64,000 nucleotides of DNA, from the NCBI GenBank assembly GCA_963837955.1, contig CAWIPH010000002.1, positions 128,001 through 192,000 of the forward strand, in the 5' to 3' direction. Source of the stretch: an uncultured Verrucomicrobiae bacterium (GTDB lineage Bacteria; Verrucomicrobiota; Verrucomicrobiia; Chthoniobacterales; JAFAMB01). Every line of letters starts with the position of its first letter. The stretch's first letter is position 1. Positions 16,964-60,180 of this stretch are shown here, one piece after another. Made by a program: the position numbers and the translations under genes. Below the pieces are notes generated by a model. The model saw nothing but the letters and a program-made list of their open reading frames with translations. It ran no database searches and was not told the DNA's origin.

Positions 16964-17331
16964 GCGTCAACATAAGAGGAACGATATGTGCCCAGAGTCG
17001 TCCCGGCTTGTCCGCCGTAGCCAGGAGGGCGAAGGAGGAAGGGACTCAATGAAAGTAGCCCAGTACGAAGTGCTGGGATGGCGTTCAAAAAAAGGGACCC
17101 GTCCCGGACGGGACGATCGAGGGTTGCTTACGCTGGTGAAGCTGCATACGAGAGAACCAGGGGCCAGGACACTTCTATCGTCCCTGCCGGGACGGACGTC
17201 TTTTTTGCATTATTTCCCAGCACTTCGTACTGGGCTACTTTCATTGAGTCCCTTCCTCCTTCGCCCTCCTGGCTACGGCGCACAAGCCGGGACCAATCCT
17301 CTGCGGATGCTTCTAAGCCTTCTGTTGAAGC
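16964..17331. mobile_element. Composite MITE-like element (GCGTCAACATAAG termini enclosing a family C REPIN and two mini-elements)
   Basis: GCGTCAACATAAG at 16964 and CTTCTGTTGAAGC at 17319-17331; the interior is a long imperfect palindrome. Homologous copy at 59864..60180. Confidence 0.8.
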
Positions 17332-17383
17332 AGATGCACGGACGCGGCGACGCGGTCGGACAAGAGTCAATCCCTCCCAGAAA

Positions 17384-18409
17384 ATGAGCACTAAACAAGA
17401 AAAACTACGTTGGGGTTTGATTGGTGCGAGCGACATCGCTGAAACCCGGATGATTCCCGCTATTAATGCCCAGCCCGATAGCATGGTGCACTCGGTGGTA
17501 AGCGGAAACGCTGAATACGCCAAATTGTACGCAAAGAAAAACTCGATTCCCAAGGCGCACCAGAATCTGGAGACGTTCCTGGCGGATCCCAATCTCGACA
17601 TTGTGTACATCAGCAGCACGAACGAAAAACACCTGGAACAAGCGTTGTCGGCTATTCGGGCGCGCAAGCCGGTCCTCTGCGAGAAACCCTTGGCTTTGAA
17701 CCTGACGGATGCGCGGGAGATGGTGACCGCCGCCGCTCGAGCAGGGCTACCGTTCGGTACTAATCATCATTTGCGCTGTGCGCCGACCCATCGAACCCTG
17801 CGGCGACTCGTTCAGGAAGGCGCCATCGGCCAACCTCTCGCGGCCAGGGTTTTTCATGCTGTATACCTTCCGCCTCGGCTCCAAGGATGGCGCTTGGATA
17901 ATCCTGCCGCCGGTGCCGGAGTAACCCTCGACATCACTGTGCATGATGCTGACACACTGCATTTCGTTCTCGGTGTGCGAGCCGAAGAGGTCATCGCCCA
18001 ATCAGTGAGCCAAGGACTTGGCCAAGGCGGAGTGGAGGACACCATCATGGGCGTCATCCGTTTCGAAGGAAATATTCTGGCGCAGTTTCATGATTCTTTC
18101 ACCATCCGCCACACTTCGACCGGCCTGGAAATTCATGGCACCGAGGGATCCTTACTGGCGACCGACGTAATGACGCAAGAACCGGTCGGACGAATCGTGC
18201 TCCGTCGCGGAACCGACGTGACGGAGATTGATCCTGGTCCTCGCGAAGACCTTTACTCATTCGCGGCGCAGCATTTCAATGCTGCCGCCCAAGGAGAGGG
18301 TCATCCCGCCGCAACCGGAGAGGATGGAATCCGATCTTTGGCCGTCGCCTTAGCGGCCGTAGAATCAATCAAAACCGGCCAACGCGTGAAGGTACATTAT
18401 GACGTGTGA
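17384..18409 (+). CDS. afr: Gfo/Idh/MocA oxidoreductase, 1,5-anhydro-D-fructose reductase-like
   Basis: 'RWGLIGAS', 'LCEKPLA', 'GTNHHLR', 'AARVFHAVYLPPRLQGWRL', 'LDITVHDADTL' and 'ATGEDG' closely match my recollection of Sinorhizobium Afr. Confidence 0.85.
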   Translation: MSTKQEKLRWGLIGASDIAETRMIPAINAQPDSMVHSVVSGNAEYAKLYAKKNSIPKAHQNLETFLADPNLDIVYISSTNEKHLEQALSAIRARKPVLCEKPLALNLTDAREMVTAAARAGLPFGTNHHLRCAPTHRTLRRLVQEGAIGQPLAARVFHAVYLPPRLQGWRLDNPAAGAGVTLDITVHDADTLHFVLGVRAEEVIAQSVSQGLGQGGVEDTIMGVIRFEGNILAQFHDSFTIRHTSTGLEIHGTEGSLLATDVMTQEPVGRIVLRRGTDVTEIDPGPREDLYSFAAQHFNAAAQGEGHPAATGEDGIRSLAVALAAVESIKTGQRVKVHYDV

Positions 18410-18454
18410 CGGCCTTTCGCTCTCGTCATCGGAACGTGACGACACCCCCCTGAC

Positions 18455-18507
18455 CGGGAGGGCGCGTGTCCCCGCGCGCCGCGGATCGCGAGGACGCGAT
18501 CCCTCCC
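18455..18507. repeat. Family D GGAG-type REP doublet
   Basis: GGGAGGGCGCGTGTCCCCGCGCGCCG followed by GGATCGCGAGGACGCGATCCCTCCC; the same arms occur at 12240, 12426, 36510 and 42804. Confidence 0.8.
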
Positions 18508-18521
18508 GCGCTTGACGCTTT

Positions 18522-20111
18522 ATGCCGCGATCCAAGCTGATTTCTTTTGAACAAATTGGTGGTCTGATTCCGAACGAGGCAGTCGTCACGGTCAGCTCGT
18601 CCAGCGGTCTCGGGTGTCCGGATGCCACTCTCCGGGCAATTGGAGAGCACTACGCGGAGCATGGCTCGCCCAAAAATCTGACCACCCTGCATCCCATCGC
18701 TGCCGGAGACATGTATGGAATAGCTGGCATTGACCACTTGGCGCGACCGGGACTTCTGAAGCGCGTCTTGGCCGGCTCATTGCCGAGCGGGCCTTCGTCA
18801 CTCCCGAGTCCGAAAATCTGGCAAATGATCTTCGATGAACAGGTGGAGGCGTATAACCTGCCCAGCGGTATCCTATTTCATATGCATCGCGAGGCTGCTG
18901 CGGGCCGCCCCGGCATATTGACCAAGGTCGGGTTGGACACATTCGTCGATCCGAGGCGCCAAGGTAGTGCGATGAACGAGCGGTCGCCCCGAGATGTCGT
19001 GAAGGTAGTCGAATTCGAGGGCGAAGAGTGGCTGTTTTTCAAATCGATCATACCCCAGGTGGCAATTATTCGGGCGACCACGGCCGATGAGAAAGGCAAT
19101 CTCACGATGGAACATGAAGGTGCGTATTTGGGCGTATTAGATCAGGCGCTCGCGGTACGCAATCACGGAGGGATAGTGATCGCTCAGGTCAAACGTGTCG
19201 CAGCATATGGGACTCTGAAACCGCAGGATGTGAAAGTTCCGGGAATCCTGGTTGACTATATTGTAGTCGATCCAGAACAGCGGCAGACCACGCAGACCGA
19301 TTATGATCCGGCGATCAGTGGTGAGATTTTCCGACCGCTGGACGCGTTCGAACCGGTAGATTGGAACGTCGACAAAGTAATCGCCCGGCGGGCAGCGTTA
19401 GAGTTGCACCGAGATGACATCGTCAACTTGGGCTTTGGCATCAGCGCTCTGGTCCCCCGAATCGTCTTAGAGGAGGGGAAACACCGCGATGTGACTTGGG
19501 TGATAGAACAAGGGCCGGTGGGCGGTGTGCCGCTTCTTGGATTTGCCTTCGGCTGTGCGTCCAATGCGGATGCTATTCTGGCATCGCCCGACCAATTCAC
19601 GCTGTATCAAGGAGCAGGGTTCGACCGCAGTTTTCTATCGTTTCTTCAGGTCGATGGGGACGGCAGCGTGAACGTGTCCCGCTTGGCGGCACGACCGCAT
19701 GTGACTGCAGGCGCCGGTGGGTTTATCGATATCACTGCGGCTGCCAAAGCCATTGTCTTTTGTGGGTATTTCACTGCAGGCGGATTAGATCTCAGGCTCG
19801 AGAATGGCCGGCTGCGAATCGCGAAAGAGGGGAAAAACCGGAAGTTTGTATCGGAAGTGGAACATGTCACGTTCAGTGGACGTCGGGCCCGAGAGAATGG
19901 GCAGAAAGTCATTTATGTTACCGAGCGTTGCGTGCTGCGCTTGGGAAACGAGGGCCTCGAAGTATTTGAAATCGCCCCTGGAATCGATTTGCAACGAGAC
20001 GTTCTGGAACAGACCGATACTCCACTGCGAGTAGCGAAGGATCTAAAGGTCATGGAGGAACGGCTATTTCGGCCGGAACCTTTCGGCCTGGAACTCGGAC
20101 CGGAGCCCTAA
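18522..20111 (+). CDS. Acyl-CoA:acetate/3-ketoacid CoA-transferase (YdiF/propionate CoA-transferase type, fused subunits)
   Basis: 'TKVGLDTFVDPR', 'IIRATTADEKGN', 'VNLGFGI', catalytic 'IEQG', 'GAGGFIDI', 'YVTERCV'. Confidence 0.92.
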   Translation: MPRSKLISFEQIGGLIPNEAVVTVSSSSGLGCPDATLRAIGEHYAEHGSPKNLTTLHPIAAGDMYGIAGIDHLARPGLLKRVLAGSLPSGPSSLPSPKIWQMIFDEQVEAYNLPSGILFHMHREAAAGRPGILTKVGLDTFVDPRRQGSAMNERSPRDVVKVVEFEGEEWLFFKSIIPQVAIIRATTADEKGNLTMEHEGAYLGVLDQALAVRNHGGIVIAQVKRVAAYGTLKPQDVKVPGILVDYIVVDPEQRQTTQTDYDPAISGEIFRPLDAFEPVDWNVDKVIARRAALELHRDDIVNLGFGISALVPRIVLEEGKHRDVTWVIEQGPVGGVPLLGFAFGCASNADAILASPDQFTLYQGAGFDRSFLSFLQVDGDGSVNVSRLAARPHVTAGAGGFIDITAAAKAIVFCGYFTAGGLDLRLENGRLRIAKEGKNRKFVSEVEHVTFSGRRARENGQKVIYVTERCVLRLGNEGLEVFEIAPGIDLQRDVLEQTDTPLRVAKDLKVMEERLFRPEPFGLELGPEP

Positions 20112-20122
20112 TTTTTTCAAGT

Positions 20123-22363
20123 ATGACGTCGGTTCCCCCCATTGTCTTTACTCCGGCAGAGGCGAATACGCTGGCTGCGATCCTGGAACGTCTCTTCCCG
20201 GCCGATGAAAATGGGCCGGGAGCGACTGAAATCGGTGTGCTCGAGTACTTGGATCGAGCATTAAGCGGCCCTTACGCGGAAGCCCGCGACACTTATCGGC
20301 TCGGCTTGTTCGCGATTGATCAGGCGAGCGTGAACCGGTTTCAAACCGGCTTCGCCCACGCGTCGGTGAATCAGCAAGATGCCCTGTTGGCTGAATTGGA
20401 GGAAGGCAGCGTCAAAGAGTTCAGCGCGGTAGCTCCAAAAGAGTTTTTCGAGCTCGTCAGGACGCACCTACAGGAAGGTTTATTCTCCGACCCGTGGTAC
20501 GGCGGTAACCGCAACAAGGCAGGCTGGAGAGTTCTGGGACATCCTGGTGTTTGGCTGGAGAACAGTGCGGAAGAAAATCTCTGCTCGGAAGCGGTCGACA
20601 AAGGGGGCGTGATCCAATCGTTAGCGGATATCGAGCTGCCAAAACCGAAATCATCGCGTATCCCGAACTATAATCCGCAACGCGGCTCTGCCGATCCCCT
20701 ATCGGACGTTGACATAATATTGGTGGGAGCGGGATCGATGGGGTCGATTGTCGCGCCGATATTCGCGAAATCGGGACTGAAAGTGATTGCGTTTGAGCCG
20801 GGACCATTTCGGACCCAAGTCGATTATCTGCCTGATGAACTGGGGGCAGCTTATTACTGCCGAGCAACCATGGGGCCGAAGTTTGCCAACGAGATTCCCC
20901 GCTGGCGGCGGAACGAAGGCGAACCGACTGCAGCCGCAACCTTCTCGCTTGGCCGCATGATGAACAGCGTTGGAGGCTCAGTGATTCATTACGGAGCGTG
21001 GTTGCGCCGATTTCATCCCCACCATTTCCGGACGCTCTCTCACGTCAAGGAGCGATGGGGGACGACGGTTCTTCCAGAAGGTTGTCGATTGGCGGATTGG
21101 CCGGTCTCCTATGAGGAACTTGAACCGTTTTATACCCGGCTGGAACACGAGATCGGGGTTGCCGGCGACGAGACAAATCCATTTCTCTCGCGGAGCAAGC
21201 CATTGCCGATGCCGCCAATGCGCCCATTTCGTCTAGGGAACTTTTTCAGTGATGCCACGCGCCAGATGGGGCTGCATCCACATCCCGTCGCCGTCGGAGT
21301 CAACACCCTACCGTATGGTGGGAGACCTGCGACGACCAACAGCGCCTGGAGCAATGGATTCGGATCCTGCACCGGAGACAAATGGGATCCATCTCTCACT
21401 GCGATTCCGGAAGCCCTCGCAACCGGCAATCTTGATTTGCGCACGGGCTGCCGCGTGATCCGGATTCTCACGGATCGTGACGGACATGCTAGTGGGGTTG
21501 AATACATTGATCCACTAGGCCGACGGAAAATCCAAGAGGCGCGCACAGTCATTCTTTGCGCTTATACCTTCGAAAATTTGCGGCTCTTGTTTCTGTCCGG
21601 AGACGGTTCGCATCCAAACGGTCTGGGAAATAATTCCCATCAGCTCGGTCGCTATTTCATGACCAAGATGTTCGCGCACGTTGACGGCTTTTTCCCGGAG
21701 ATCAATTTCAATCGCCATACCGGTCCGGCTGCGCAGGGCGTTGTCCTCGATGACTTTTTGGCGGCGGACTTCGAATCCGTCCAACACGGGTTTATCGGTG
21801 GCGCTACTTTAGGTGCCGAGCAACAATTCTTGCCGATTCAGATCAGCCGCGAAGCATTGCCACCGAGCGTGCGGCGTTGGGGTAAACCCTACAAAGATCA
21901 TCTCCGGCAATGGCAGCACTTTGGGGTGGTGCGGATCCAGCCCGACACACTTTCGTACGACAACAACTTCATCGATATCGATCCCCGTCACCGCGATCGG
22001 AGCGGAGTCGGAATGCCCGTGATTCGCATTACCTATGATATGAGAGAGAACGAGCAGCGTCTGGCGGCATGGATGGAGGCGAAAGCGGAGGAGGTCTTAC
22101 GAAAAATGGGCGCTACTGCCACCTGGCGAGGGAAACGATTTACCGGAGTTGGCAGCAGCCACGACTTTGGTGGTGCAAGGATGGGAGAAGACCCAGGTGT
22201 CTCAGTGCTTGATCCGCAATTGCAGGTTCATGATACGCCTGGGCTCTACGTTTTTAGCGGCGCGGCGTTCCCGACCTGTCCAGGTATCAATCCAACCCTA
22301 ACGCTAATGGCTGTGTGCGTTCGTGCTGCCGAACAGCTGGTGAGGAAGCTGAGAGGGAAATGA
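20123..22363 (+). CDS. Fusion of gluconate 2-dehydrogenase subunit-3-like domain and GMC flavoprotein
   Basis: N-terminus 'LAAILERLFPADENGPGA..YLDRAL..EGLFSDPWYGGNRNKAGWRVLGHPG', then 'ILVGAGSMG', 'VGGSVIHY', 'DWPVSYEELEPFY', 'HDFGGARMG', 'NPTLT'. Confidence 0.88.
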   Translation: MTSVPPIVFTPAEANTLAAILERLFPADENGPGATEIGVLEYLDRALSGPYAEARDTYRLGLFAIDQASVNRFQTGFAHASVNQQDALLAELEEGSVKEFSAVAPKEFFELVRTHLQEGLFSDPWYGGNRNKAGWRVLGHPGVWLENSAEENLCSEAVDKGGVIQSLADIELPKPKSSRIPNYNPQRGSADPLSDVDIILVGAGSMGSIVAPIFAKSGLKVIAFEPGPFRTQVDYLPDELGAAYYCRATMGPKFANEIPRWRRNEGEPTAAATFSLGRMMNSVGGSVIHYGAWLRRFHPHHFRTLSHVKERWGTTVLPEGCRLADWPVSYEELEPFYTRLEHEIGVAGDETNPFLSRSKPLPMPPMRPFRLGNFFSDATRQMGLHPHPVAVGVNTLPYGGRPATTNSAWSNGFGSCTGDKWDPSLTAIPEALATGNLDLRTGCRVIRILTDRDGHASGVEYIDPLGRRKIQEARTVILCAYTFENLRLLFLSGDGSHPNGLGNNSHQLGRYFMTKMFAHVDGFFPEINFNRHTGPAAQGVVLDDFLAADFESVQHGFIGGATLGAEQQFLPIQISREALPPSVRRWGKPYKDHLRQWQHFGVVRIQPDTLSYDNNFIDIDPRHRDRSGVGMPVIRITYDMRENEQRLAAWMEAKAEEVLRKMGATATWRGKRFTGVGSSHDFGGARMGEDPGVSVLDPQLQVHDTPGLYVFSGAAFPTCPGINPTLTLMAVCVRAAEQLVRKLRGK

Positions 22364-22377
22364 AAGGCCTTGGCTTA

Positions 22378-22680
22378 GTAGGGCGGACCCTCCAGGCTCC
22401 GCGGCCCGAGGCGTTATTAACCTCAAGGAGTCCACAAATCGCCGTGACTTTGCCTCGAGCTCGGTTCCGGAGCGTGGACGATCCGGCTACGTTTTTGGCG
22501 GCCCATAGGTCGGAGGGCGCGGCGCTTGCGCCGCCCGGAAACGATCCAAGACGCACCGAGGAATCGAGGCCATGGATTCGGCTGGCTCTATTCGATCATG
22601 GGTTGTTCCCGGGCGTCGCAAGCGACGCCCCTCCGCTTTCAGGGGTTGTTCCGGCCGAAAGAAGTCGGCACGCCCTCCGT
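22378..22680. repeat. Cluster of GTAG- and GGAG-type REP-like hairpins
   Basis: GTAGGGCGGA..ATCCGGCTAC (22378-22490) and CGGAGGGCGCGGCGC..GACGCCCCTCCG (22511-22635) in an intra-operon gap. Confidence 0.6.
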
Positions 22681-22719
22681 CGTCAGGGGTTCCTCTTTGA
22701 CGCGAAAAGATAAGACTCG

Positions 22720-23490
22720 ATGAACGATTCGACCAAAATTCAGATTTTCGCGGAAGCCCCGATTGCGCGGGTGACATTGCATCGACCGGAAAAGCTAAAC
22801 GCTCTGGATCCGGAGATGCTGACGGCCTTGGAAACCGGGTTGAGTCTGCTGGAGGAGCGGAGGGATATCCGGATAGTGATTCTCCAAGCGAGTGGAGAAA
22901 AAGCTTTCTGCGTGGGCGCCGATATCAATGCTTGGACCGCTTTGACCCCGTTGCAGATGTGGTCCGAATGGATTCGACACGGGCACCGCGTTTTTTCTCG
23001 GCTGCATCAATTGCGGCAGCCAGTCATTTGCGCGATTCAAGGTTTGGCATTTGGCGGCGGTCTAGAACTGGCGTTGGCCTGCGACATCCGCGTTGCTGCC
23101 GAGACTGCGAGGTTTGCCATGCCGGAGGTCAAGTTGGGTACGGTGCCAGGTTGGGGAGGGACTGCTCGTCTGCCGGAGCTGATTGGCAAGGGTCGAGCGC
23201 AACAAATGATCCTATCGGGAGAACCGATCACTGCCCACGTGGCGGAACGGTGGGGTCTAGTAAACGAAGTAGTTCCGATAGACCGATTGAGCGCACGAGT
23301 CGAAGAACTGGCAAACCGGATAGCCGCAAATGCGCCGGTCTCGGTGCAAACCGCTAAGCAGTTAGTAGCCGGCTCCAATGCAGTAACTCTGGAGTCGATC
23401 GCTGCTGCTACGAATGCTTTCACCCAAGATGCCGCGGAAGGATTAGCGGCTTTTCGCGAGAAACGTAACCCCAACTTTCAAGGCCTATGA
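22720..23490 (+). CDS. Enoyl-CoA hydratase/isomerase (crotonase) family protein
   Basis: 'RPEKLNAL', 'AFCVGADI', 'GGGLELALACDIR', 'MPEVKLGTVPGWGGT'; both catalytic Glu positions are present. Confidence 0.95.
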   Translation: MNDSTKIQIFAEAPIARVTLHRPEKLNALDPEMLTALETGLSLLEERRDIRIVILQASGEKAFCVGADINAWTALTPLQMWSEWIRHGHRVFSRLHQLRQPVICAIQGLAFGGGLELALACDIRVAAETARFAMPEVKLGTVPGWGGTARLPELIGKGRAQQMILSGEPITAHVAERWGLVNEVVPIDRLSARVEELANRIAANAPVSVQTAKQLVAGSNAVTLESIAAATNAFTQDAAEGLAAFREKRNPNFQGL

Positions 23491-24998
23491 ACCAACCTCC
23501 TTCGAAACCGTTTCAGTACCAATTATGGATCAATGGAAAGGAAGCAACATCCAGGTCCGGAAAGACGTTTGATCGGCGCAGTCCGGCTCACGACGTAGTG
23601 GTTGGCGTTTATCCGCTGGCCGCCAACGAAGACACTGATCTCGCGGTGGCTGCTGCCCGGCATGCATTTGATACGGGACCGTGGCCAAAACGTTCGGGGG
23701 CCGAGCGCGCGGCCTGCCTGGCGAAGTCGGCTGCACTCATCCGGGCAAACGCAGAGGAATTGGCACTGATCGAGACGCTGGAAAGCGGAAAACCGATCGG
23801 CCAAGCCCGAAACGAGATGGAATGGGCGGCCGGAATTTGGGACTACGCGGCGGCCTCTTGTCGCAACCTTGCTGGAGATACCTACAACTCTTTGGGAGAA
23901 CAGATGCTCGGGCTAGTGGTACGCGAGCCGATTGGGGTGGTCGGTATGATCACTCCTTGGAATTTTCCGCTGTTGATCATTAGTCAGAAATTGCCTTTTG
24001 CTTTGGCCGCTGGTTGTACCTGCGTGATTAAACCGAGCGAACTGACTCCTGGTACCACCTTGCGGTTGGGGCCATTGCTCGCGGAAGCGGGAATCCCTGC
24101 CGGCGTTGTCAATATTCTGAGCGGCTATGGCGATCCGGTTGGCCAACGGCTTAGCTCCCATACCGATATCGACATGATGTCATTCACCGGCTCCACCGAG
24201 GTCGGGAAAATGGTCGTCGAAGCTTCTCGCTCAAACCTGAAAAAAGTTGGGCTCGAACTCGGGGGCAAGAATCCTCAAATCATTTTTGCCGATGCTGACT
24301 TAGAGGCTGCCCTTGATGCCGCCGTATTCGGCATTTGCTTCAACATGGGAGAGTGCTGCAACAGTGGGAGCCGCTTGTTAGTGGAGCGCTCGATCTACGA
24401 CAAATTCGTCGAGCGTTTGATCAGCCTCACGCGAGAAGTACAAGTCGGCGATCCTTTGGACGAAAATACCCAAGTTGGTGCAATCGTGAATGACGAACAA
24501 CTCGACAAGATCCTTCACTATATCGCCGACGGTCAGCGGTCCGGAGCGAATTTGCGATCAGGCGGACGACGGTTGAAGAGCGTTGCTGGCAGGTTTGTTG
24601 AGCCGACGATCTTCTCCGATGTCCGTCCGGATATGCCGATTGCGCGAGAAGAAATTTTCGGACCGGTTCTTTCGGTGCTGCCTTTCGATCACGCGGACGA
24701 GGCGATCGCGATCGCGAATAGCACGCCGTACGGATTATCGGCCGCGGTCTGGACTCGAGATTTGGATCGAGCCTTCTCTGTCAGTCGAGGTGTACGGGCC
24801 GGAACGGTCTGGATCAATACCTTCATGGAAGGACCGGCTGAGCTGCCATTTGGCGGATACAAGGAAAGCGGCTTAGGCAGGGAACTGGGCAGGTCAGCGA
24901 TCGAGGAGTTCACAGACCTTAAGACCATTCAGGTGCATTTCGGCCCGCGAACGGGTTGGTGGGTCAAACCGGGAATCGGCAAACCAGAAGAGAAATGA
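23487..24998 (+). CDS. NAD(P)-dependent aldehyde dehydrogenase, L-sorbosone dehydrogenase-like
   Basis: 'ITPWNFP', 'FTGST', 'LELGGKNP', catalytic 'GECC', 'EEIFGPV'. 'FDRRSPAHDV' and 'GDTYNSLGE' resemble sorbosone dehydrogenases. Confidence 0.92.
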   Translation: MNQPPSKPFQYQLWINGKEATSRSGKTFDRRSPAHDVVVGVYPLAANEDTDLAVAAARHAFDTGPWPKRSGAERAACLAKSAALIRANAEELALIETLESGKPIGQARNEMEWAAGIWDYAAASCRNLAGDTYNSLGEQMLGLVVREPIGVVGMITPWNFPLLIISQKLPFALAAGCTCVIKPSELTPGTTLRLGPLLAEAGIPAGVVNILSGYGDPVGQRLSSHTDIDMMSFTGSTEVGKMVVEASRSNLKKVGLELGGKNPQIIFADADLEAALDAAVFGICFNMGECCNSGSRLLVERSIYDKFVERLISLTREVQVGDPLDENTQVGAIVNDEQLDKILHYIADGQRSGANLRSGGRRLKSVAGRFVEPTIFSDVRPDMPIAREEIFGPVLSVLPFDHADEAIAIANSTPYGLSAAVWTRDLDRAFSVSRGVRAGTVWINTFMEGPAELPFGGYKESGLGRELGRSAIEEFTDLKTIQVHFGPRTGWWVKPGIGKPEEK

Positions 24999-27551: not shown

Positions 27552-27560
27552 TTCAGGCTG

Positions 27561-33723: not shown

Positions 33724-33922
33724 GTAGCCTGATCCTTCCTCCTTCGTTCTCCCTACAACCCGCAACTTCGGCGGACAAGCCTGGCTCAGGATCGCGGGGT
33801 TACAGATTGTGAGAAGTGATCGGTGAACGCCTATCGGCAAAAATCTCTCACAGCGCTCTCACTAATCACCAACATACTTCCTGAGGCTGGAGCATCAGGC
33901 TACGGCTGGAGCATCAGGCTAC
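33724..33922. repeat. Family A REPIN with a mini-element in its left hairpin and a duplicated right end
   Basis: GTAGCCTGATCCT[insert]..GGCTCAGG ... CCTGAGGCTGGAGCATCAGGCTAC GGCTGGAGCATCAGGCTAC. Confidence 0.85.
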
Positions 33923-36489: not shown

Positions 36490-36719
36490 TCTCGTCCTCG
36501 TCCTCGAAAGGGAGGGATCGCAGCCTGTCCGACATAGCTTTTTGATGCATCACACTCAACGACCATGCGCTTCTGCGACGTCGGATCCTCGCGATCCGCG
36601 GCGCACGAGGATCCGACGTCGCACTAAAACATTCTCCACAGGCATCCGAAAGGCTATGTCGGACAGGCTGTGCGCCCTCCCTATTATGTATTGTTTTTCG
36701 CGCCGAGCACGAGCACGAC
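36490..36719. repeat. Nested palindromic repeat: CTCGTC/GAGCAC short repeats > family D REP doublet > two mini-elements
   Basis: CTCGTCCTCGTCCTCG..GGAGGGATCGC[insert]TCCTCGCGATCC..GGCGCACGAGGA[insert]GTGCGCCCTCCC..CGAGCACGAGCACGA. Confidence 0.8.
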
Positions 36720-42803: not shown

Positions 42804-42913
42804 GGGAGGGCGCACAGCCTGTCCGACATAGCCTTTCGAATGCTTGGTGCAGAATGCTTGAGTGCGACGTCGGATCCTCGTGCGCCGTGGATCGCGGGGA
42901 CGCGATCCCTCCC
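42804..42913. repeat. Family D REP doublet with one mini-element insertion
   Basis: GGGAGGGCGCAC[AGCCTGTCCGACATAGC..GCGACGTCGGA]TCCTCGTGCGCCG..GGATCGCGGGGACGCGATCCCTCCC. Confidence 0.82.
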
Positions 42914-50867: not shown

Positions 50868-50870
50868 GGT

Positions 50871-51881: not shown

Positions 51882-52049
51882 TGCTCCAGCCTCAGGGAGC
51901 GCGTTGGTGATCGGTGGGAGATTTTCTGCCGAGGATTTGCCGATAGGCTCCACCAATCACTTCTCACCAATCACCTCTTATACGCAGCGCCCCCCTGAGC
52001 CAGGAGGATCAGGCTACGGCAGGATCAGGCTACGGCGGGATCAAGCTAC
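51873..52049. repeat. Family A REPIN with a triplicated right end
   Basis: GTAGACTGATGCTCCAGCCTCAGG ... GGATCAGGCTAC x2 + GGATCAAGCTAC. Confidence 0.85.
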
Positions 52050-52076
52050 GATCATTGCGAAAAAGTTGTTGTGCGT

Positions 52077-52103
52077 TGTCCTAATTGTGACCGCTCATTC
52101 GTC
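52077..52103 (+). promoter_or_regulatory. Candidate ECF42-dependent promoter
   Basis: TGTCCT-N17-CGTC upstream of the DUF899-YciI-ECF42 operon; resembles the TGTCGA..CG(A/T)C motif reported for ECF42. Confidence 0.5.
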
Positions 52104-52163
52104 GCATAATTGAACCGAACACAAGGTGCAGATTCAGCGATCACGTTTACGGACGAGCAAAAT

Positions 52164-52967
52164 ATGAACACGCAGACAAAGACTTCCGAAGGAAGAAAAG
52201 GTATTTCAGACCATCCAATCGTTTCGCGAGAAGAATGGGTTAGGCTTCGCAAGGAGCTGCTCAAGAAAGAGAAGGAGTTTACGCGGCTGCGCGACCAGTT
52301 GAACGCCGAATGCCGCGAGCTGCCCTGGGTCAAGGTGGAGAAGCGGTACCTCTTTGACGGGCCGGACGGCAAGGAGACGCTCGCCGACCTCTTCGATGGA
52401 CGCAGCCAATTGATCGTCAATCACTTCATGCTGGGTCCGGGATGGAAAGAAGGTTGTGTGGGCTGCTCGTTTGGAGCCGATCATAATGACGGGATCCTCG
52501 TGCACCTCCAGCATCACGACGTAACGTTTGTCGCGATCTCGCGAGCGCCCCTACCCGAGATCGAAGGCTTCAAGAAGCGCATGGGCTGGGGCTTTAAGTG
52601 GGTGTCGTCATTTGAGAGCGACTTCAATTACGATTATCACGTGTCGTTCACCAAAGAGCAGATCGCGAAGGGCAAGGTGTACTACAACTACGACGTGCAA
52701 GAATTCCAGATCGATGAACTTGCCGGCACTAGCATGTTCTACCGGAACGAGACCGGCGACATCTTCCACACCTATTCAGCTTACGCGCGCGGCAGCGAAA
52801 TGTTGGGGGGCGCGTACGGTTACCTCGACCACTTGCCGAAGGGCCGCAACGAGACGGGCCCCAACCACAACCTGTCCGATTGGGTGCGGCACCACGACAG
52901 GTATGACGATGGCGGGCTAGTCAGCGCGACGGGACGATTCCAACCTGCCAAAACATCGGATTCGTGA
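52164..52967 (+). CDS. DUF899 family thioredoxin-like protein
   Basis: 'VSREEW..LLKKEKEFTRLRD..ELPWVKVEK.Y.F..LADLFDGRSQLIV.HFM..GCVGCS..HTYSAYARG..PKGRNE..WVRHHDRY'. Confidence 0.92.
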   Translation: MNTQTKTSEGRKGISDHPIVSREEWVRLRKELLKKEKEFTRLRDQLNAECRELPWVKVEKRYLFDGPDGKETLADLFDGRSQLIVNHFMLGPGWKEGCVGCSFGADHNDGILVHLQHHDVTFVAISRAPLPEIEGFKKRMGWGFKWVSSFESDFNYDYHVSFTKEQIAKGKVYYNYDVQEFQIDELAGTSMFYRNETGDIFHTYSAYARGSEMLGGAYGYLDHLPKGRNETGPNHNLSDWVRHHDRYDDGGLVSATGRFQPAKTSDS

Positions 52968-52990
52968 CACAGTTCGAGGGAGGATAATTC

Positions 52991-53383
52991 ATGAGCACTC
53001 ATCGTTGTTGCGAAGTCACTGTGAGCGGTGGCCGCCGCGAGAGGGCCGGAACGCGAACCATGGATGGCGATCGGCGGCTGCCAAAGTTCGCCCGGCGTTG
53101 TTCTGAAATCGCGGGATGGATCGTTCCGAGCGCCACCCTGGCGCTTTTGCCCAAGTGTCCCGTATGTATAGCGACCTACGCTGTGATTGGAACCGGAGTC
53201 GGGCTTTCGGTCTCAACCGTGACCTTTCTGCGGACGCTGCTTGTGATCCTGTGTGTGCTGTTGCTGACATACCTCGTAGCCAAACGCGGGTGGCATTTCA
53301 TCGTATTGATTTTCGAGACGAGGAGAAAAACGGTCAAACAAACGATTGATCGAGCGCTGAACCATTGCGAAAGACAAATATGA
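52991..53383 (+). CDS. Small membrane protein with a PKCPxC motif
   Basis: 'LALLPKCPVCIATYAVIGTGVGLS' plus a TM helix; its stop overlaps the next ATG. Confidence 0.7.
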   Translation: MSTHRCCEVTVSGGRRERAGTRTMDGDRRLPKFARRCSEIAGWIVPSATLALLPKCPVCIATYAVIGTGVGLSVSTVTFLRTLLVILCVLLLTYLVAKRGWHFIVLIFETRRKTVKQTIDRALNHCERQI

Positions 53384-53787
53384 GCACACAGCCGACAACA
53401 TCCGAATACATGCTGTTATTCCGGAGCGGAGAGTGGGACAAGGATCTCTCCCCGGAAGAGATCCAGAAGATCATGGGCAAATGGAATGCCTGGTTCGAAC
53501 GGTTAAACCAGCAGGGGAAGGTCGTCAGCGCCCACCCTCTCGAGCGTGAGGGGAGGGTCGTTTCCGGGACAAAAGGGCGGCCGGTGGCCGATGGTCCTTT
53601 TGTTGAGTCCAAAGAAGCCATTGGCGGCTATTTCCTGCTGCAAGTCGGTGACCTCGAAGAGGCGGTGAAAATCGCCAAAGAGTGCCCAGCGGTGGAACAT
53701 GGTTTGACCGTTGAAGTCCGGCCGGTGGCGGAGCAGTGCCCGCCCATGCGATGGGCGAACGAGCAACTGACCCAGGCGACCGCTTGA
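53380..53787 (+). CDS. YciI/DGPF domain protein
   Basis: 'YMLLFR', 'VADGPFVESKEAIGGYFLL..EEAVKIAKECP..VEVRPV'. Confidence 0.92.
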   Translation: MSTQPTTSEYMLLFRSGEWDKDLSPEEIQKIMGKWNAWFERLNQQGKVVSAHPLEREGRVVSGTKGRPVADGPFVESKEAIGGYFLLQVGDLEEAVKIAKECPAVEHGLTVEVRPVAEQCPPMRWANEQLTQATA

Positions 53788-55076
53788 GCGAATTTCAAGA
53801 TAGCAGTGGCGCGCCCCCAGCAGAAATTTCCCAGTTGGCGGAACATCTCTTTCGCCATGAGGCAGGAAAGCTGGTTTCTGTCCTGACAGGAATCTTTGGA
53901 ATTGACCGCCTGCAATTGGCTGAGGATGTGGTCCAAGAAGCATTGGTCCGTGCGTTGAAGACGTGGCCCTATTATGGGATTCCGAAGAACCCCGCCGCGT
54001 GGATCACCCAAACGGCGAAGAACCTCGCGTTAGACTTGATTCGGCGGGAAAAGCTCTTCCGCGAAAAGCAGCCAGAAATTGTGGCAACCATTGAGCAGTG
54101 GCCGGGCGACTCAGTTGCTGGCGATTCGCCTTTATTCGACAGCGAAATAAGAGACGGCCGTCTGCGGTTAATGTTTGCGTGCTGCCATCCGCTTCTCCCG
54201 CCAGAGGCGCAGACGGCGCTGGCCCTTAAGACACTTTGCGGATTCAGCGCCGCCGAAATCGCGAAGGCATTTCTCACGACCGAGGTGGCGATTGCCAAGA
54301 GACTGACGCGAACCAGGCAAAAAATTCGCGAGCTACACATTCCCTTCGAGATTCCGTCCGGCGATGAGTTTTCAGCTCGTCTGGATGGTGTGCTACAAAC
54401 TCTCTATCTGCTTTTCAACGAAGGTTACAAGGCGTCGAGCGGTGACAGCCTCGTCCGGGAGGAACTGTGCTATGAAGCGATTCGTCTGGCGACATTGCTA
54501 GCCGAGCACCCGATGGGCAATCATCCCCGCACTCATGCTCTGGTCGCGCTGATGTTGTTGAACGGAGCGCGACTCTCCGCGCGAGTAGACACGGAAGGAA
54601 ATATTCTTCGTCTCAAGGAGCAGGATCGGTCGAGTTGGAACAAGGAAATGATCGGGCGCGGGATGTTACACTTAGGCCGATCGGCAGCGGGAGAAGAACT
54701 CAGCGGATACCATCTTCAGGCCGGTATTGCCGCCTGCCATTGCATGGCCGACGACTATGAGTCCACGGATTGGCCGAGAATCTTGTCCCTCTACGATCAA
54801 TGGATGGAGACGAATGATTCTCCGATCGTCGCCCTTAATCGTGCCGTGGCTGTTGCGAATGTGGACGGCCCCAAAGCCGGCATTGCGGCAGTCGAGGCAA
54901 TTCGGAACCGAGGTCAGTTAGATTCGTATTACCTGCTTTATGCGGTCCTCGGCGAGTTCGAGGCGCAACTGCATAACTTCCAGACTGCTACCGACAATTT
55001 CCGGAAGGCGCTGCAACTAACTGAGGTGAAATCGGAACAATCTTTTCTATCGAAACGGCTCCGGGATTGTGAATAG
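53784..55076 (+). CDS. ECF sigma factor with C-terminal DUF6596/TPR extension (ECF42 group)
   Basis: 'LAEDVVQEAL..W..GIPKNPAAW', 'LRLMFACCHP', 'EIAKAFL', 'LYLLFNEGY', 'YHLQAGIAACH', 'SPIVALNRAVA'; next to a DGPF protein. Confidence 0.93.
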   Translation: MSEFQDSSGAPPAEISQLAEHLFRHEAGKLVSVLTGIFGIDRLQLAEDVVQEALVRALKTWPYYGIPKNPAAWITQTAKNLALDLIRREKLFREKQPEIVATIEQWPGDSVAGDSPLFDSEIRDGRLRLMFACCHPLLPPEAQTALALKTLCGFSAAEIAKAFLTTEVAIAKRLTRTRQKIRELHIPFEIPSGDEFSARLDGVLQTLYLLFNEGYKASSGDSLVREELCYEAIRLATLLAEHPMGNHPRTHALVALMLLNGARLSARVDTEGNILRLKEQDRSSWNKEMIGRGMLHLGRSAAGEELSGYHLQAGIAACHCMADDYESTDWPRILSLYDQWMETNDSPIVALNRAVAVANVDGPKAGIAAVEAIRNRGQLDSYYLLYAVLGEFEAQLHNFQTATDNFRKALQLTEVKSEQSFLSKRLRDCE

Positions 55077-55555
55077 CAGGATCTGCGCATTCGACCTCCT
55101 CTGAGAACTTCGCGATCTCCTGTTCAAACTGAGGTGAAATCGGAACAATAGTTTCCATCGAAAAGACTACAGGATTGTGAATACCAGGATCTGCGCATTC
55201 AACCTCCTCTGGAATCTTCGTGATCTCCTGTTCAAAATGAGGCGAGATCGGAACAATCGTTTCTATCGAAAAGACTCCGGGATTGTGAATAGCAGGATCT
55301 GCACATTCAACCTCTGGGATCTTCGCGATCTCCTGTTCAAAACGAGGCGAGATCGGAACAATCGTTTCTATCGAAAAGACTACGGGACTGTGAACAGCGG
55401 GATCTGCACATTCGACCTCCTCTGGGATCTTCGCGATCTCCTGTTCAAAATGGGGTGAGATCTGAACAATCGTTTCCATCGAAAAGAATACCGGATTGTG
55501 AATAGAGGGGTTTGGCATTTCAACCTCCTCTGGGATCTTCGTGATCTCCTGTTCA
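55019..55555 (+). repeat. Tandem array, 5 x ~108 bp, containing the 3' end of the ECF42 gene
   Basis: Unit starts at 55019, 55127, 55235, 55340 and 55448 (periods 108, 108, 105, 108, 108). Confidence 0.95.
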
Positions 55556-56743
55556 AAACTCCGTCTTCGCGGTCTCTTTGTGGAGCATCTGATCGAAAAC
55601 AAGCTTTCCGGCGATCCAGACGCGCTGAACCGCGAATCGGTCATCGAAGAGCACTAAATCAGCAGTTTTACCCGACTGAATTGAGCCAAAACGGTCACCG
55701 ATCCCTAGGATCGTCGCCGGGGTGAGAGAGGCCATGCGCACGGCGTCGAATAGCGGGACATCGGCCCGCTGAATTACGGTTCGGACCAAATCAATCATCC
55801 GAGCCAAACTCCCTGCCAAGGCTGATTCATCTTCAAGCATGGCGTAACCGGGACCAACTTTGGACGCCACGCTCCCAAGTTGGAATTTCGTACCTTCCGG
55901 TAAGCCGGCGCCCGCCAACGAATCTGATACCAGGGCGATTCGCTCAGCACCTTTCGCCCGATACGCTAGTTTCAGTAACGTTGGCGATACATGGAATCCG
56001 TCGGCGACGAGTTCGCAGAAAACATTTTCATCTGCTAACGCGAACTCCAATGTACCGGCCTGCCGGAATAGGCCGCGTTTCGAGGCGCTCGACATCGCGT
56101 TGAACAGGTGGGTTACTTTCTTGAGGCCAACAGCAACCGCGGCTTGCATTTCCTGGTCTGAGGCCTCGGTATGACCGGCGCTCATGGTCACCCCGGCCCG
56201 GGTCGCAGCCTCAATGAGATCCAAAGCGCCGGGCAATTCTGGAGCGATGGTCATTTGGGAAATGCTTCGAGCCCGCGATAGAATCCAATCGCGTTCTTTT
56301 GCTCCGGGCGGGCCCATCAATTTCGGATTCTGAGCGCCCGCTTTCGACCGCGCAAGATGCGGTCCCTCGAGATGTACAGGCAATAGACGGGCTTTGGAGC
56401 TCTGCTTGGCGGTTTGCCAGGCGTCTAAGAAAGAATCGAAGTGATCGTAGGTCGTCGTGGCTGCGGTCGGACAAATAGACGTTGTTCCTCCCGAAAGATG
56501 AAAGTCAGCGGCAGTAAGAAACGCTTCGGCAGTGGCATCTAGAAAGTCTGAACCCCTACCTCCGTGAACGTGAAGGTCGATGAAGCCAGGGGCAAGATAA
56601 GACCCATTCGCGTCCATTCGATCCTGCACGTCCGGAAGAGCGCCCTCGCCGATCGTATGTATCAATTCATCAGCGATCAACAGCCAACCCCGATCCAAGA
56701 CTCGATCGGGCAAAATCAATCTCGCGTTATAGATGCATAGCAT
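55553..56743 (-). CDS. nagA: N-acetylglucosamine-6-phosphate deacetylase
   Basis: 'PGFIDLHVHG', 'HLEGP', 'TIAPE', 'GHT', 'THLFNAM', 'DGFHV', 'LAGS'. Confidence 0.93.
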   Translation of the reverse strand: MLCIYNARLILPDRVLDRGWLLIADELIHTIGEGALPDVQDRMDANGSYLAPGFIDLHVHGGRGSDFLDATAEAFLTAADFHLSGGTTSICPTAATTTYDHFDSFLDAWQTAKQSSKARLLPVHLEGPHLARSKAGAQNPKLMGPPGAKERDWILSRARSISQMTIAPELPGALDLIEAATRAGVTMSAGHTEASDQEMQAAVAVGLKKVTHLFNAMSSASKRGLFRQAGTLEFALADENVFCELVADGFHVSPTLLKLAYRAKGAERIALVSDSLAGAGLPEGTKFQLGSVASKVGPGYAMLEDESALAGSLARMIDLVRTVIQRADVPLFDAVRMASLTPATILGIGDRFGSIQSGKTADLVLFDDRFAVQRVWIAGKLVFDQMLHKETAKTEF

Positions 56744-56911
56744 AGCTTTGCGTCCGCTTAGGGCGTGATAAGTAGCAGGGTCGCTAGCTCACAGAAGTTC
56801 TTGCTCGGAGCAGATAGCAGTCTAGTTCAACCGGCTACAACCAACAATGACGTGAATCAAGGAAGTCAGGATTAACAACAAATTACCGATGACTAGGGGC
56901 TTCTAAGAGAT

Positions 56912-56943
56912 GGCACTCGGCATGCGTTAGCAAGCCGAGTGCC
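56912..56943 (-). terminator. Stem-loop downstream of the beta-propeller gene
   Basis: GGCACTCGGC / GCCGAGTGCC, a perfect 10-bp stem about 40 nt after the stop; no strong U-tract. Confidence 0.5.
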
Positions 56944-56982
56944 CGCGATTCCTAGAGGCTCACCACAAAATCGCCTAAGGCA

Positions 56983-59625
56983 CTAAAAGCCGACGATTGA
57001 CGCCTGCCATATCCCAAGCCCGTGCGTCGCTGCTCGTAAGATGCGAGTCGGGCTTTGCAGCTTGAGGTCGAACACCTCAACCTTGGGGAAGCCAGTTCCG
57101 AATTTATGCCAGTGCGCTCCTCCGTCGGTCGAAGCGTAGATCCCGAGATCGGTGCCAGCAAAAAGGTGCAGGGTATTTTGAGGATCAATAACCAAGCCAT
57201 TGACTGACACGTCAGGAAGGCCGTGGCCGGCACGTTTCCAGGTAGGTTGCGTATTTGAGGTAAGTGCGGATACCAGGTTGTTCGTTACCCAGACCTGTTC
57301 ACCTTTAGCTAACCCATATCCGTTGAATGCCACATACACGACATTCTGGTTGGTAGGATCGAGAACGATTCGCGTAATATACCCAGGAGGAAGCTGCCCG
57401 GTGATTTCGACGAGGGCCGAGGAGGCCGTTACGGTCGCGAAAACATTTCCGGTATCGAGTCCGACCACACGAATAGTGTCATTTAACGGGGATATGCCGA
57501 TCGCGCTGATAGGAACGCGGACACCTTGGATTTGCAGGATCGGCGCCTGGCTCACGGCAACCATCGTATTACCGCGGTCTGCCGAACGATAGAGCGTGTC
57601 AGTCCCAAAATAGACTGTATTTGGGCTACCGGGACCCAACGCTATCGGCGCGTAGAAATTGACGCTATCCGTAATCGGGATCCCATTGAATTTGTCAGTG
57701 GTCCCGTCGCAATGAACCGTAGGATCTACGCTACCGCCGTAGATGCCCAAAAGCGACCATTGTCCCTCCTGAGCGCAGGAGGTTTTGAGAACACGACCAA
57801 AGCCGATTAAGTCGTTCGTGATATTAAAATAGGTGTGATACATCGTGACGTTTTCGGTATCCGTCGCGCTTTGATCGATGAGCGCATAGCCGCCATCGCC
57901 GAAATCCGCTCTGAAAAACGTGCCGTCCGGGTTTCGGAGAATCGTGCCGTTATCCTGCGTTCCGCCGATGGTGAAGTCGGCATCACTTGGGTGAACAGCC
58001 AGGCTTTCAAACTGAGTCGCTTGAAATCCTGGTGTATTGATGTCCCGCCACGTTTGACCATTGTCCGTTGAAGCCCAAACGCCACCGTCGTTACCCGTGT
58101 AGACCACGTTTGTGGCAGAAGGCGCTATGGCGATAGCGTGACTGTCGGCGTGCAACCCGCTCACGCTTGGCGTGAAGGTCACCCCTCCATTAGTCGAGTA
58201 TTGAAAGATGCCACCGCCCTTCGGAGGTCCGTGGCCGCTTGCAGTCGGGTCCGAAGGGGTCGGGTTGGGAATAGCTTGTCCATCGATGTACATGTAGCCA
58301 TGACCGGGCGGCCCATCGGGATCGACACCGGTCGAACTCACGGTACCGGCCAGATAAACGTTTTGCGGATTCGTTTGATCAATCGCGATGGCGATGTTGT
58401 AAAAGCCTTGGCCCCCAGCGAACCCATTGCCAGCCGGTAAGACCGTGGGGAACGTGGCTCCGCCGTCGGTTGATTTACGTAAAAGGCCCTGATCTAGTTG
58501 CCCCGAGGCGTACTCGTCCGTCGCGGCGATTACGATCAGAGTCCCGGTACCTGGATCCAGGGCACCAGCCAGCTTCACATTGGTGAGGGTTGGCAAATTC
58601 CCATCCGCTGTGCCGGTAACCGTAGCTCGAGTAAAGACAGGCTTAGGCGCCAGCGCGTTGTTGCTGTAGTAAAGGCCGCCTTGGGGATCGAGGTCACCGC
58701 CTGATCCGGTCACTTGACCAAAAACGCTGCAAACCAAATGTTTCGGATTGCTCGGATCTAAAATCGCACCGGTAACGATCGTGTTTGTGCCAGGGCCAAC
58801 TTTCAGTCTTTCAAACGTGTGGCTCCCGGTCAGAAAATTCGTCGAGCGATAAAGGCCGCGTGGAGGTAGAACTGCACCCACGTTTGCGCCCAATCCACCA
58901 ACACCGGACGAACTGGCGCAGAACACTATGTCGTCGTCTTTTGGATCTACCAGAATCTTGACGATGCTTCGATTCGTGAAGACGTCGTTCCCGAGGCCGT
59001 CCAGCTTGTAAGGCCCTTCCAATCGGGGGTGCGTCGAGTTCGCATTCACTACGACATAAACGCCGACACCGAAGTCGCTGTCGCCCGATAAATTGCCTTC
59101 TCCCGTTCCGATAAAGACCTTGGTGGGATCAACGGGATCTACCGTGATCGACCCAACCGCGAAGTTCTTGGCTCCGACGAAGAGAGATGTCCAAGTCTGA
59201 CCGCCGTCGAACGAACGATAAACACCGCCCTGTGCGCCACCAACGTAGACGATGTTCGGATTTGTAGGATCCACATCAATGGCAGAAACTCGCCCGCTCA
59301 CCGGCACCTCCGTGGGTCCATAAGTCTGGCCATTCGGAATGGGACTTGGACCTAGCGAAAACCACTGTGGGCCGGTTTCGAATAAGCGGGATGACAGATT
59401 CCTCCTCGCGAGCTCCCGGCAGCGCTGGGCGGGTATGGCCGGGTAGATTGTTTAGCGTTGGGGGTTTGGAGAACGGTTTTCTGTGGAGTCGCGCCGGATC
59501 GATGGCACCGGCCGGAAGAGCCAGCCAAAGGCTAGCGACGATGGTTACACTCCCAGAAGGGAGCCCGTAAATTCCGAGAGACTTCGGGAAAAGCGTCTCG
59601 GTGTCGAAGGTGTGGAATAATTCAT
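56983..59625 (-). CDS. Secreted BNR/Asp-box beta-propeller protein (sortilin/GH74-like fold); N-terminus disrupted by two apparent frameshifts
   Basis: Asp-boxes 'RSFDGGQTW', 'STDGGATF', 'STNGGVTF', 'STDNGQTW', 'STDGGAHW', and 'GGTQDNG', 'ATHGLGIW' in ORF 56983..59307. ATG 59625 is in the same frame, but a signal-peptide-like segment (TIVASLWLALPAGA) lies in a shifted frame. Confidence 0.8.
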
Positions 59626-59863
59626 AGACTAGACGGATCTGGACGAAGGCCAATCACGGTGCTCCGTTCCAGAAGTGGCAAATGTGGTATCAGGGTCCAA
59701 AGCCGGCTGTCTATCTAAACATTTATGGTAATTATAGTCGATATAGACAAGGCCTTTCTATCAAGTCACCGATTTCTTAGTTAGGTGTCCCGACCGAAGA
59801 GTCTAAGGATGGATCCACTGCCGGCCTTCGATCGAGGCTCTTGTGGGTGCGCCGATCGCCTGC

Positions 59864-60180
59864 GAGTCAAGATAAGAGGAAGGATATGCCCGAGGGGAGT
59901 GGGCCCGGCTTGTCCGCCGTAGCCCGGAGGTCGCGCGACGGCGAGGCGAAGGAGGAAGGGACTCAGTGAAAGTAGCCCAGCACGAAGTGCTGGGAAATAA
60001 TGCAAAAAGAGACGTCCGTCCCGCCAGAGGGACGATAGAAATGTTTTGGCTCCTGGACATCTCGTATGCCCTCACCCGCGTAAGCAGCCGTCGATCGTCC
60101 CATTCCTCCTTCGGCATCCTGACTATGGAGGACAGGCCGGGACGAGTCTTTGCGCAACCCTCTAAGCCCTATGTTGACGC
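59864..60180. mobile_element. Composite MITE-like element, second copy, internally deleted
   Basis: GAGTCAAGATAAG...CCTATGTTGACGC termini; the interior matches 16964..17331 but lacks one arm segment between two GTCCC motifs. Confidence 0.8.

Follow-up and report, generated by a model that had tools for sequence, protein, structure and literature searches.

The question raised by a 64,000-nucleotide stretch of the genome of an uncultured Verrucomicrobiae bacterium (contig CAWIPH010000002.1, positions 128,001 to 192,000; this whole stretch is referred to below as the window) is whether a short hairpin element, which lies there inside the hairpins of other repeats, is a mobile unit in its own right or a part of the repeats that carry it, and which enzyme could be responsible for its movement. 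A relaxed pattern for the two arms of this element matches the window exactly eight times, and these are the same eight copies, at about the same positions, that a preliminary description of this DNA had listed. The reading that we favour, and which we consider probable, is that the element is a non-coding hairpin that is recognised and nicked in single-stranded DNA by GIY-YIG nucleases of one clade, with host enzymes finishing its precise insertion. The observations from which this reading starts are the anatomy of the element, the covariation of its stem, the exact empty sites, the in-frame inserts, the self-nesting and the link to one GIY-YIG clade, whereas the part of the candidate nuclease in the movement of the hairpin is suggested by linkage.

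The element consists of a 4-nt 5' tail (CYTG), a 6-bp stem, a 3x3 purine-rich internal loop, two further base pairs and a free loop, and it ends in GGA. The stem is mostly TCCNNC paired with GNNGGA, the internal loop has RWA opposite GRM, and the free loop varies from 4 to about 45 nt, the real copies catalogued in the source genome being 30-71 nt long. The fixed asymmetric end and freely varying loop noted earlier are thus borne out by the CYTG tail and by this range of loop lengths, and it was also rightly stated that there are no terminal inverted repeats in the sense of MITEs (miniature transposable elements with inverted repeats), the ends being a 4-nt overhang plus a stem. The motif RGCYTGTCC occurs 9 times in the window as against 1.81 expected, a number reached in 0 of 100 shuffles; seven of these matches are listed copies, the other two (26769 and 58273) are without a right arm, and the copy at 17255 has one mismatch to the motif.

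Compensatory changes, for which a covariance check had been proposed, are found in the stem both in viral copies and at the nuclease loci described below. The pattern that gave 52 viral copies did not constrain two of the stem positions, and both of these pair in 41 of the copies, in 6 combinations. Among 64 distinct matches from nuclease loci, in an alignment that was fitted to the structural model, 97.7% of cells pair, double changes are seen in 7 of 8 pairs, and the covariation score was reached in 0 of 500 shuffles, with slid controls far below it. The first position of the internal loop also covaries (G.A 147, A.C 32, A.A 12 and G.C 1), and we take the G.A and A.C combinations to be the interchangeable sheared pairs of DNA hairpins, for which a literature search gave no paper. 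Because MAFFT placed the right arm of the variable-length copies out of register, the covariance model was built from 23 copies of 30 nt; this model recovers 6 of the 8 window copies at E<=1, and it misses the long-loop hairpins of the nuclease clade. No family could be named for the element earlier, and this stands after a search of the Rfam models, which gave 0 matches at the gathering threshold in the window and, at 10 loci, tRNA/tmRNA and weak matches only.

The boundaries of the element follow from its empty sites. When CYTG...GGA is excised in silico, the 16-nt form that remains is common in the genome for the A, C and E types of host, and exact empty forms exist for four A- and C-type copies of the window (Table 1). 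Since the excised sequence equals an existing empty form, the leading RG belongs to the host and target duplication is absent; the sites given earlier are about right, but the element of the A, C and E hosts starts at CYTG rather than at RG, and in five of the eight copies it extends at the right by one base more, to GGA. The exact empty form is found 0 times for the three D-type copies and for the diverged A-type copy at 59909, and in D hosts and in a GACGA tandem family, where the exact empty form is likewise found 0 times, an extra A precedes the element in the filled copies. The empty D arms lack one A at their 5' junction, so that the uninterrupted D hairpin at 18455, though an empty host, does not count as an exact empty site, whereas the uninterrupted C hairpin at about 51994 is the exact empty form of the 33737 site. 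Empty arms exceed filled arms 2-6 fold in all five host types. None of the window copies could be matched with an empty counterpart at the orthologous locus. No filled/empty polymorphism was seen in public runs (6 runs listed, none of them RNA; best share 0.21), and the contigs of 4 sequencing runs, which are broken at repeats, gave no joint with the element alone removed. An orthologous empty site of the hairpin at locus L076 was sought in 60 congeners, where the flanks are not conserved and the matches are to the hairpin only, all 8 of the inspected congener matches lying at tRNA-Leu ends without the gene; for a copy within the genome's own ADP-ribosylglycohydrolase gene (C2:786978), 3 homologues are too divergent in the loop concerned to give an exact junction. 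Most insertions of the element are precise and are without target duplication.

In the 5.62-Mb source genome, the two-arm pattern yields 167 matches as compared to 3 and 7 in two shuffles, and a stricter catalogue of 154 copies, of which 3 were discarded as noise, leaves 151 copies, including one that is the tRNA-Tyr cassette hairpin considered below. Four families of repetitive extragenic palindromic (REP) sequences are the hosts of 102 of these copies, while 17 are in tandem repeats, 10 are nested in or abut other copies and 22 are elsewhere or in degenerate hosts; 17 of the 151 lie inside an open frame of at least 200 codons. The claim that the element occurs only inside hairpins therefore fits the window, with 8 of 8 copies, whereas genome-wide it fits 102 of 151 and across phyla a minority. 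Each REP host family carries its own type of element loop, and because the loop sequence tracks the host family, the eight window copies are probably not eight independent jumps, and most copies of this genome probably descend from a few founder insertions that were carried by the REPs. In the D1, D2 and C hosts, the identity of the arms is 0.90-0.99 compared with 0.76-0.83 for the loops, no two of which are alike, and this conservation of the arms while the loops diverge suggests that the arms are still being recognised. An autonomous element with a gene in its loop was looked for among 184 left arms and none was found, the left arms without a near right arm being degenerate or truncated copies. 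Many E-type hosts are followed by one common short motif. A degenerate D-type REP plus element is also present in frame in a gene for a PMT_2-family glycosyltransferase (L385, G000:C2:2070300-2072500); two relatives have a corresponding loop that is shorter by at least 20 residues, and in three the loop has diverged.

The distribution of the element extends far beyond this genome. The scan of the genome and its relatives that had been suggested returned, besides the 151 own copies, matches to the pattern with loops of up to 33 nt in 13 of 41 related genomes, where it is patchy even within genera; a looser hairpin pattern matches 86 of 201 genomes of the phylum, and the exact 30-nt pattern is found in at least 122 GTDB stretches and in 21 further stretches of viral contigs. 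Among the matches listed for the 30-nt pattern (80 of them titled) are Patescibacteria, Verrucomicrobiota, Alphaproteobacteria, Acidobacteriota, Planctomycetota, Elusimicrobia and others. The flanks of the cross-phylum copies are unrelated: some copies lie in the loops of CGTC-type REPs in Bradyrhizobium, others in short tandem repeats, in the internal loop of the element itself, or in genes. Insertion of the element into itself is seen at L033, L048, L126 and L137 as well as in the own genome, and it is up to three deep in L033 and L048. In-frame copies are present in LeuRS, RlmN, a P-type ATPase, an AIR synthase-family protein, UvrC, and RecF/SMC-family and CobW-family proteins. The insert in LeuRS is an exact 10-residue gap in comparison with the solved structure 1h3n, and the gap is likewise exact in comparison with 4 of 20 family loci, those being the loci for which the pattern output the junction; in RlmN, a 7-residue gap is seen versus a structure that is distant and hence not an exact test of the junction. 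The LeuRS gene at L056 has, in addition, a second, variant-looking 10-residue insert near its N-terminus.

The choice of targets was examined in 140 distinct cross-phylum junctions. A loop closed by at least 5 pairs is the target in 17 of them (controls 4-5%), and a looser folding test is positive for 49 (controls 22-30%); short tandem repeats account for 18 of the 140 as against 3 of 266 controls, and a G-N^A step is present at 44, where about 6% is expected from composition. The proposal that the element recognises structure rather than sequence is only partly upheld. A preference for targets is real but loose, and targeting is not separable in these data from a bias in survival.

A candidate enzyme is indicated by a gene adjacent to hairpins of the same build. 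The source genome has one small GIY-YIG gene, about 560 nt behind tRNA-Tyr, and between the two are hairpins of the element's build, one of them with a nested free copy. An alignment of eight small GIY-YIG proteins was used in a search that led to 83 loci of one clade, whose product is an 80-residue Slx1-like GIY-YIG protein. At 52 of these 83 loci, as against 0.3 expected, a hairpin is present within -400/+300 nt of the gene, and a model made from free copies only detects hairpins at 49 of the 83 at E<=1 (21 at E<=0.01), mostly less than 200 nt upstream of the gene. Further genome loci of the clade gene have the hairpin in 11 of 20 cases. In a control comparison, the hairpin accompanies 13 of 17 clade loci, or 6 of 8 when L155 and the rows used for training are set aside, as against 0 of 26 rows, of which 25 are distinct, from other small GIY-YIGs, many of which are also near tRNAs. 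The link of the hairpin is specific to one GIY-YIG clade, and the search for a nuclease gene bounded by the element's motif, which had been recommended, has in this manner produced a candidate. Among 200 genomes of the phylum, the clade gene is present in 27 of the 33 that have at least 5 copies of the element, compared with 38 of the 167 others and 13 of the 115 that have no copies; as related genomes are not independent, the P values of such co-occurrences are overstated and these counts serve as sizes. The predicted model of the nuclease has a pLDDT of 93, and structural comparison places it nearest to the Slx1 structure-selective nucleases (TM 0.77; best E 1e-3, with no lower value); the label SLX1-like, cd10449, is presumably appropriate for the clade. 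A tblastn search of plasmids with the nuclease gave no match, and the ESM Atlas returned generic GIY-YIG clusters only. Other small GIY-YIG clades of the same family (L154, L158, L162, L163, L168 and L170) are located within duplicated tRNA genes; the one at tRNA-Val (L158 and L168) has its own, different GC-rich hairpin, and several clade-specific pairs of hairpin and nuclease thus coexist in this family.

The usual order in the cassettes of the clade is a tRNA/tmRNA 3' end, a hairpin on the opposite strand, a hairpin on the strand of the gene, and the start codon. A hairpin arm begins at the tRNA CCA at 40 of the 83 clade loci, and 37 of these pair downstream; this count is preferred to a looser one of 49 of 70, which came from a loose pattern without a control. 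In viral contigs, a fixed-length pattern with a CCA stem has 1 match, behind a tRNA-like 3' end, versus 21 for TCC and 64 for CCC. In the source genome, 6 of 50 tRNA/tmRNA genes, viz. those of tmRNA (G000 C1:570132), tRNA-Thr, tRNA-Val, two tRNA-Gly and tRNA-Tyr, are followed by the start of the hairpin, and the gene is kept at tRNA-Tyr only. At one tRNA-Gly (G000:C2:1022095-1022420), a D-type REP composite lies within the loop of the cassette hairpin and the nuclease gene is absent behind it, so that nesting is reciprocal, with REP in hairpin as well as element in REP. Tandem stacks are also seen behind tRNA ends at L406 (G233:C1:5450200-5452200), L157, L159, L161 and L169, the stacked units being either hairpin plus gene (402-nt period) or hairpins plus first codons.

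According to the mechanism that we propose, the nuclease would, like SsnA, bind the tail and stem without regard to the loop. If the DNA is cut at the tail's 5' edge and at the foot of the stem, this would release or expose the hairpin with its 4-nt overhang, which would then be joined into a nick in single-stranded target DNA, preferably, it would seem, at G-N^A steps, in small loops, in the element's own internal loop or in short tandem repeats, and a host ligase or polymerase is predicted to complete the process. The REP arms of this genome would have received a small number of founder insertions, which then multiplied as passengers of REPs associated with REP-associated tyrosine transposases (RAYTs), the arms remaining under constraint. 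A stronger version, to which we give limited credence, is that the 80-residue GIY-YIG protein alone is a single-strand transposase that excises a 30-nt hairpin bearing a 4-nt overhang and inserts it scar-free into single-stranded targets; if true, the element would be among the smallest of bacterial mobile elements, a 10-codon unit common to many phyla, and this would represent new chemistry for the GIY-YIG fold.

The minimal single-stranded mobile hairpin of the preliminary description is supported by its fixed asymmetric end, by compensatory covariation and by exact empty sites for most hosts, but the HUH-type partner suggested there does not fare as well. Under that suggestion, a RAYT or TnpA enzyme of the Y1 family would move the hairpin by peel-and-paste with CYTG as the guide tetranucleotide, and it has in its favour that a bulged hairpin preceded on its 5' side by a 4-nt tag and the lack of target duplication are as at REP and IS200/IS605 ends (PMC6006769; this and the other papers cited are drawn upon in the portions available), that REP insertion in small palindromes is known (PMC3733652), and that the genome has 8 Y1 matches, two of which are flanked by the A and E host REPs. 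The co-occurrence is weak (Y1 is found in 23 of 33 copy-rich genomes versus 61 of 167 others, an odds ratio of 4), Y1 adds little in nuclease-positive genomes (at least 2 copies in 26 of 38 versus 16 of 27), while in Y1-negative genomes the nuclease still predicts copies (16 of 27 versus 8 of 89); further, the RAYT loci examined, at 3 of the 8 Y1 matches, are each bounded by their own REPs, one of which has an element copy inside, and the tag is not GTAG or GTGG. The hairpin physically flanks the GIY-YIG clade instead, and we regard an HUH enzyme as improbable. A third RAYT-like gene (G000:C2:4429600-4430500) is bounded by its own repeat family. It is also very unlikely that the element is only a fixed sub-part of compound REPs that is not mobile by itself, a view which accounts for most window copies but not for the family: although 102 of the 151 copies are in four REP families, each with its own loop type, and no orthologous filled/empty pair is available for the window copies, lone copies occur in LeuRS, RlmN, the P-type ATPase, the AIR synthase-family protein and UvrC, the hosts across phyla are unrelated, empty arms exceed filled ones 2-6 fold, and the exact LeuRS gaps (1h3n; 4 of 20 family loci) largely refute it.

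Two other explanations retain the hairpin and alter the route. The nuclease may bind the hairpin for another purpose, viz. restriction of single-stranded DNA or protection of, or homing to, tRNA sites, and the copies would then be by-products spread through template switching or gene conversion at nicks, without excision and joining. In agreement with such copying by synthesis are the extra A common to the D and F junctions, the hairpins duplicated in tandem together with the start of the gene and the fact that repeats are preferred, and SsnA only cuts and modulates transformation (PMC11893778); it does not readily account for the same two boundaries in 140 unrelated flanks with almost no common sequence, and the match of upstream base and element end is weak in matched collections (GA 4 of 21 versus 3 of 52, by hand count), so that we consider this explanation unlikely. 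An RNA route, e.g. one in which a pre-tRNA trailer hairpin is copied in trans by a reverse transcriptase, would agree with the start of hairpins at tRNA/tmRNA CCA ends, but one of the two cassette hairpins is on the strand opposite to the tRNA, one-sided changes of the G-U type are nearly absent (2 cells), there is no Rfam match and there is no pattern of duplication or truncation. GIY-YIG domains do serve Penelope retroelements, but even with this in its favour such a route has little probability.

Movement of the hairpin through the clade GIY-YIG nuclease also has to be reconciled with several results that weigh against it. Nucleases of the GIY-YIG type are hydrolases that are not known to carry out joining, and the extra junction A in D and F hosts does not fit a clean nick-and-join. 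The folding of the window copies does not surpass that of shuffled sequences (z -0.2 to -1.6), with two of them favouring other folds, the 30-nt copy (z -2.74) being the sole case with a distinctive folding energy, and no strand bias relative to replication is seen (84 versus 67, P=0.19). The linkage is incomplete, since the hairpin pattern is unmatched at 31 of the 83 clade loci, the clade gene is absent at E<=1e-18 from 6 of the 33 copy-rich genomes and also from 2 of 5 cross-phylum genomes, and no gene recurs beside free copies among 1432 open reading frames (ORFs). The gene-flanking hairpins are unlike the free ones in having CCA/TGG stems or other tails, with CYTG in only 9 of 37 tallied gene-side tails, a number that is low partly because bulges shift the register. 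Lastly, the nuclease gene of the source genome reads CTG in place of the ATG of its two closest homologues, and it may therefore be inactive.

The coordinates of the copies and of the empty hosts in the window are collected in Table 1.

Table 1. Element copies and empty host repeats in the window (positions count from its first letter).
Feature	Position	Strand	Remarks
Element, 33 nt	17007..17039	+	In loop of A-type hairpin; covariance model 34.7 bits; exact empty form (16 nt) 27x in genome; forms left arm of a REP doublet in the spacer between a lacI-family gene and a Gfo/Idh/MocA gene
Element, 33 nt	17254..17286	-	Right arm of the REP doublet of the 17007 copy; one stem mismatch; exact empty form 6x
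Element, 43 nt	33737..33779	-	G/T-rich loop; in loop of C-type GTAG REP; exact empty form 38x
Element, 62 nt	36524..36585	+	D-type (GGAG-headed) arm; extra A at host 5' junction; no exact empty form
Element, 56 nt	36612..36667	-	Other D-type arm of the 36524 doublet; extra A at junction
Element, 57 nt	42818..42874	+	D-type arm; partner arm (about 42887-42912) empty
Element, 48 nt	59909..59956	+	Diverged A-type hairpin
Element, 33 nt	60104..60136	-	A-type hairpin; compensated TCCTCC/GGAGGA stem; 31.9 bits; exact empty form 14x
Empty C-type REP	51994..52017	+	Exact empty form of the 33737 site
Empty A-type hairpin	17101..17114	+	
Empty D-type REP doublet	18457..18509	+	Host family, not an exact empty site

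Other repeats of the window are a directly duplicated D-type REP composite (12219-12570; 186 nt, 98% identical), four tandem units of 105-108 nt inside a 218-codon ORF (55023-55558), and two adjacent paralogous stretches (60866-63938) that are about 2466 nt apart and about 75% identical.

The birth and spread of REP-like hairpins is an open question, and in most cases the unit is not defined, or clean empty sites or an enzyme are missing. In the present case, there is a 30-nt unit with fixed ends, thousands of natural junctions that can be mined, and a candidate enzyme that is small (80 residues) and can be assayed on one oligonucleotide. The element accounts for inserts of 10 residues that recur in the essential proteins of uncultured bacteria, and a loop-programmable nuclease for single-stranded DNA or a tool for scar-free insertion could be derived from it. 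No description of it was found in the literature search, outside of which are the subscription literature, ISfinder and the Ssn supplements, and it is apparently an unpublished, real and widespread minimal mobile hairpin with a specific candidate enzyme.

In comparison with known systems, the element differs from MITEs in that terminal inverted repeats and target duplication are both absent. Palindrome-associated transposable elements (PATEs) are non-autonomous derivatives of IS200/IS605. With IS200/IS605, the element shares precise insertion without target duplication (A, C and E hosts and LeuRS, with D and F carrying one A more) and, as we infer, recognition of a single-stranded hairpin; it differs in being one 30-nt hairpin rather than two ends with two subterminal hairpins, in its varying flanks with no fixed target tetranucleotide and in having no replication-strand bias. 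Similar to the Rickettsia palindromic elements (RPE), it is a palindromic insert found in frame in housekeeping proteins (PMC3733652), but its sequence, its cross-phylum range and its candidate partner enzyme are different. As a short, mostly extragenic hairpin in many copies (151), it is a REP in the broad sense, and it resembles REPs and REPINs in combining a tetranucleotide with a hairpin that is in some cases bulged, in being non-autonomous and in occurring in frame in some cases (PMC3733652, PMC6006769). The GTAG-23 REP family of T. roseum likewise inserts in small palindromes (PMC3733652), and five signature strings of the element are absent from the 4 supplement files of Di Nocera 2013 that were searched (PMC3733652). 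However, whereas REPs by rule carry GTAG or GTGG as a tag that precedes the stem foot on the 5' side by 0-2 nt (Quentin 2018, PMC6006769), the element has CYTG as its tag, its mobile unit is one hairpin and not a doublet, it is not species-specific, and it is linked to a GIY-YIG gene and not to an HUH transposase, with no inverted element copies bounding the RAYT genes at the 3 loci examined.

The nearest known system is that of the Ssn nucleases with their NTS/SRM hairpin repeats, in which a single-domain GIY-YIG protein of the CDD family cd10448 cuts single-stranded DNA upstream of an oriented hairpin whose loop is not needed, and whose authors (Chenal et al. 2025) remark on its IS-like layout (PMC11893778). 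In both cases, a small single-domain GIY-YIG gene is flanked by an oriented hairpin with an unpaired 4-nt 5' tag, many hairpin copies are scattered, and gene and repeat co-occur, the Ssn loop being dispensable. By the SRM pattern the element is nevertheless not a member of this system, as the published pattern is matched by 0 of the 151 copies and within 500 nt of 0 of the 83 gene loci. A putatively Ssn-like protein aligns with the clade over 32 columns only. The element is further distinguished from Ssn/SRM by its 3x3 purine internal loop, by the location of the gene at tRNA/tmRNA 3' ends, by a 30-nt sequence that is nearly unchanged across phyla, and by the precise in-frame and nested insertions that the hairpin itself forms, and it would thus extend the Ssn concept from cutting to dissemination.

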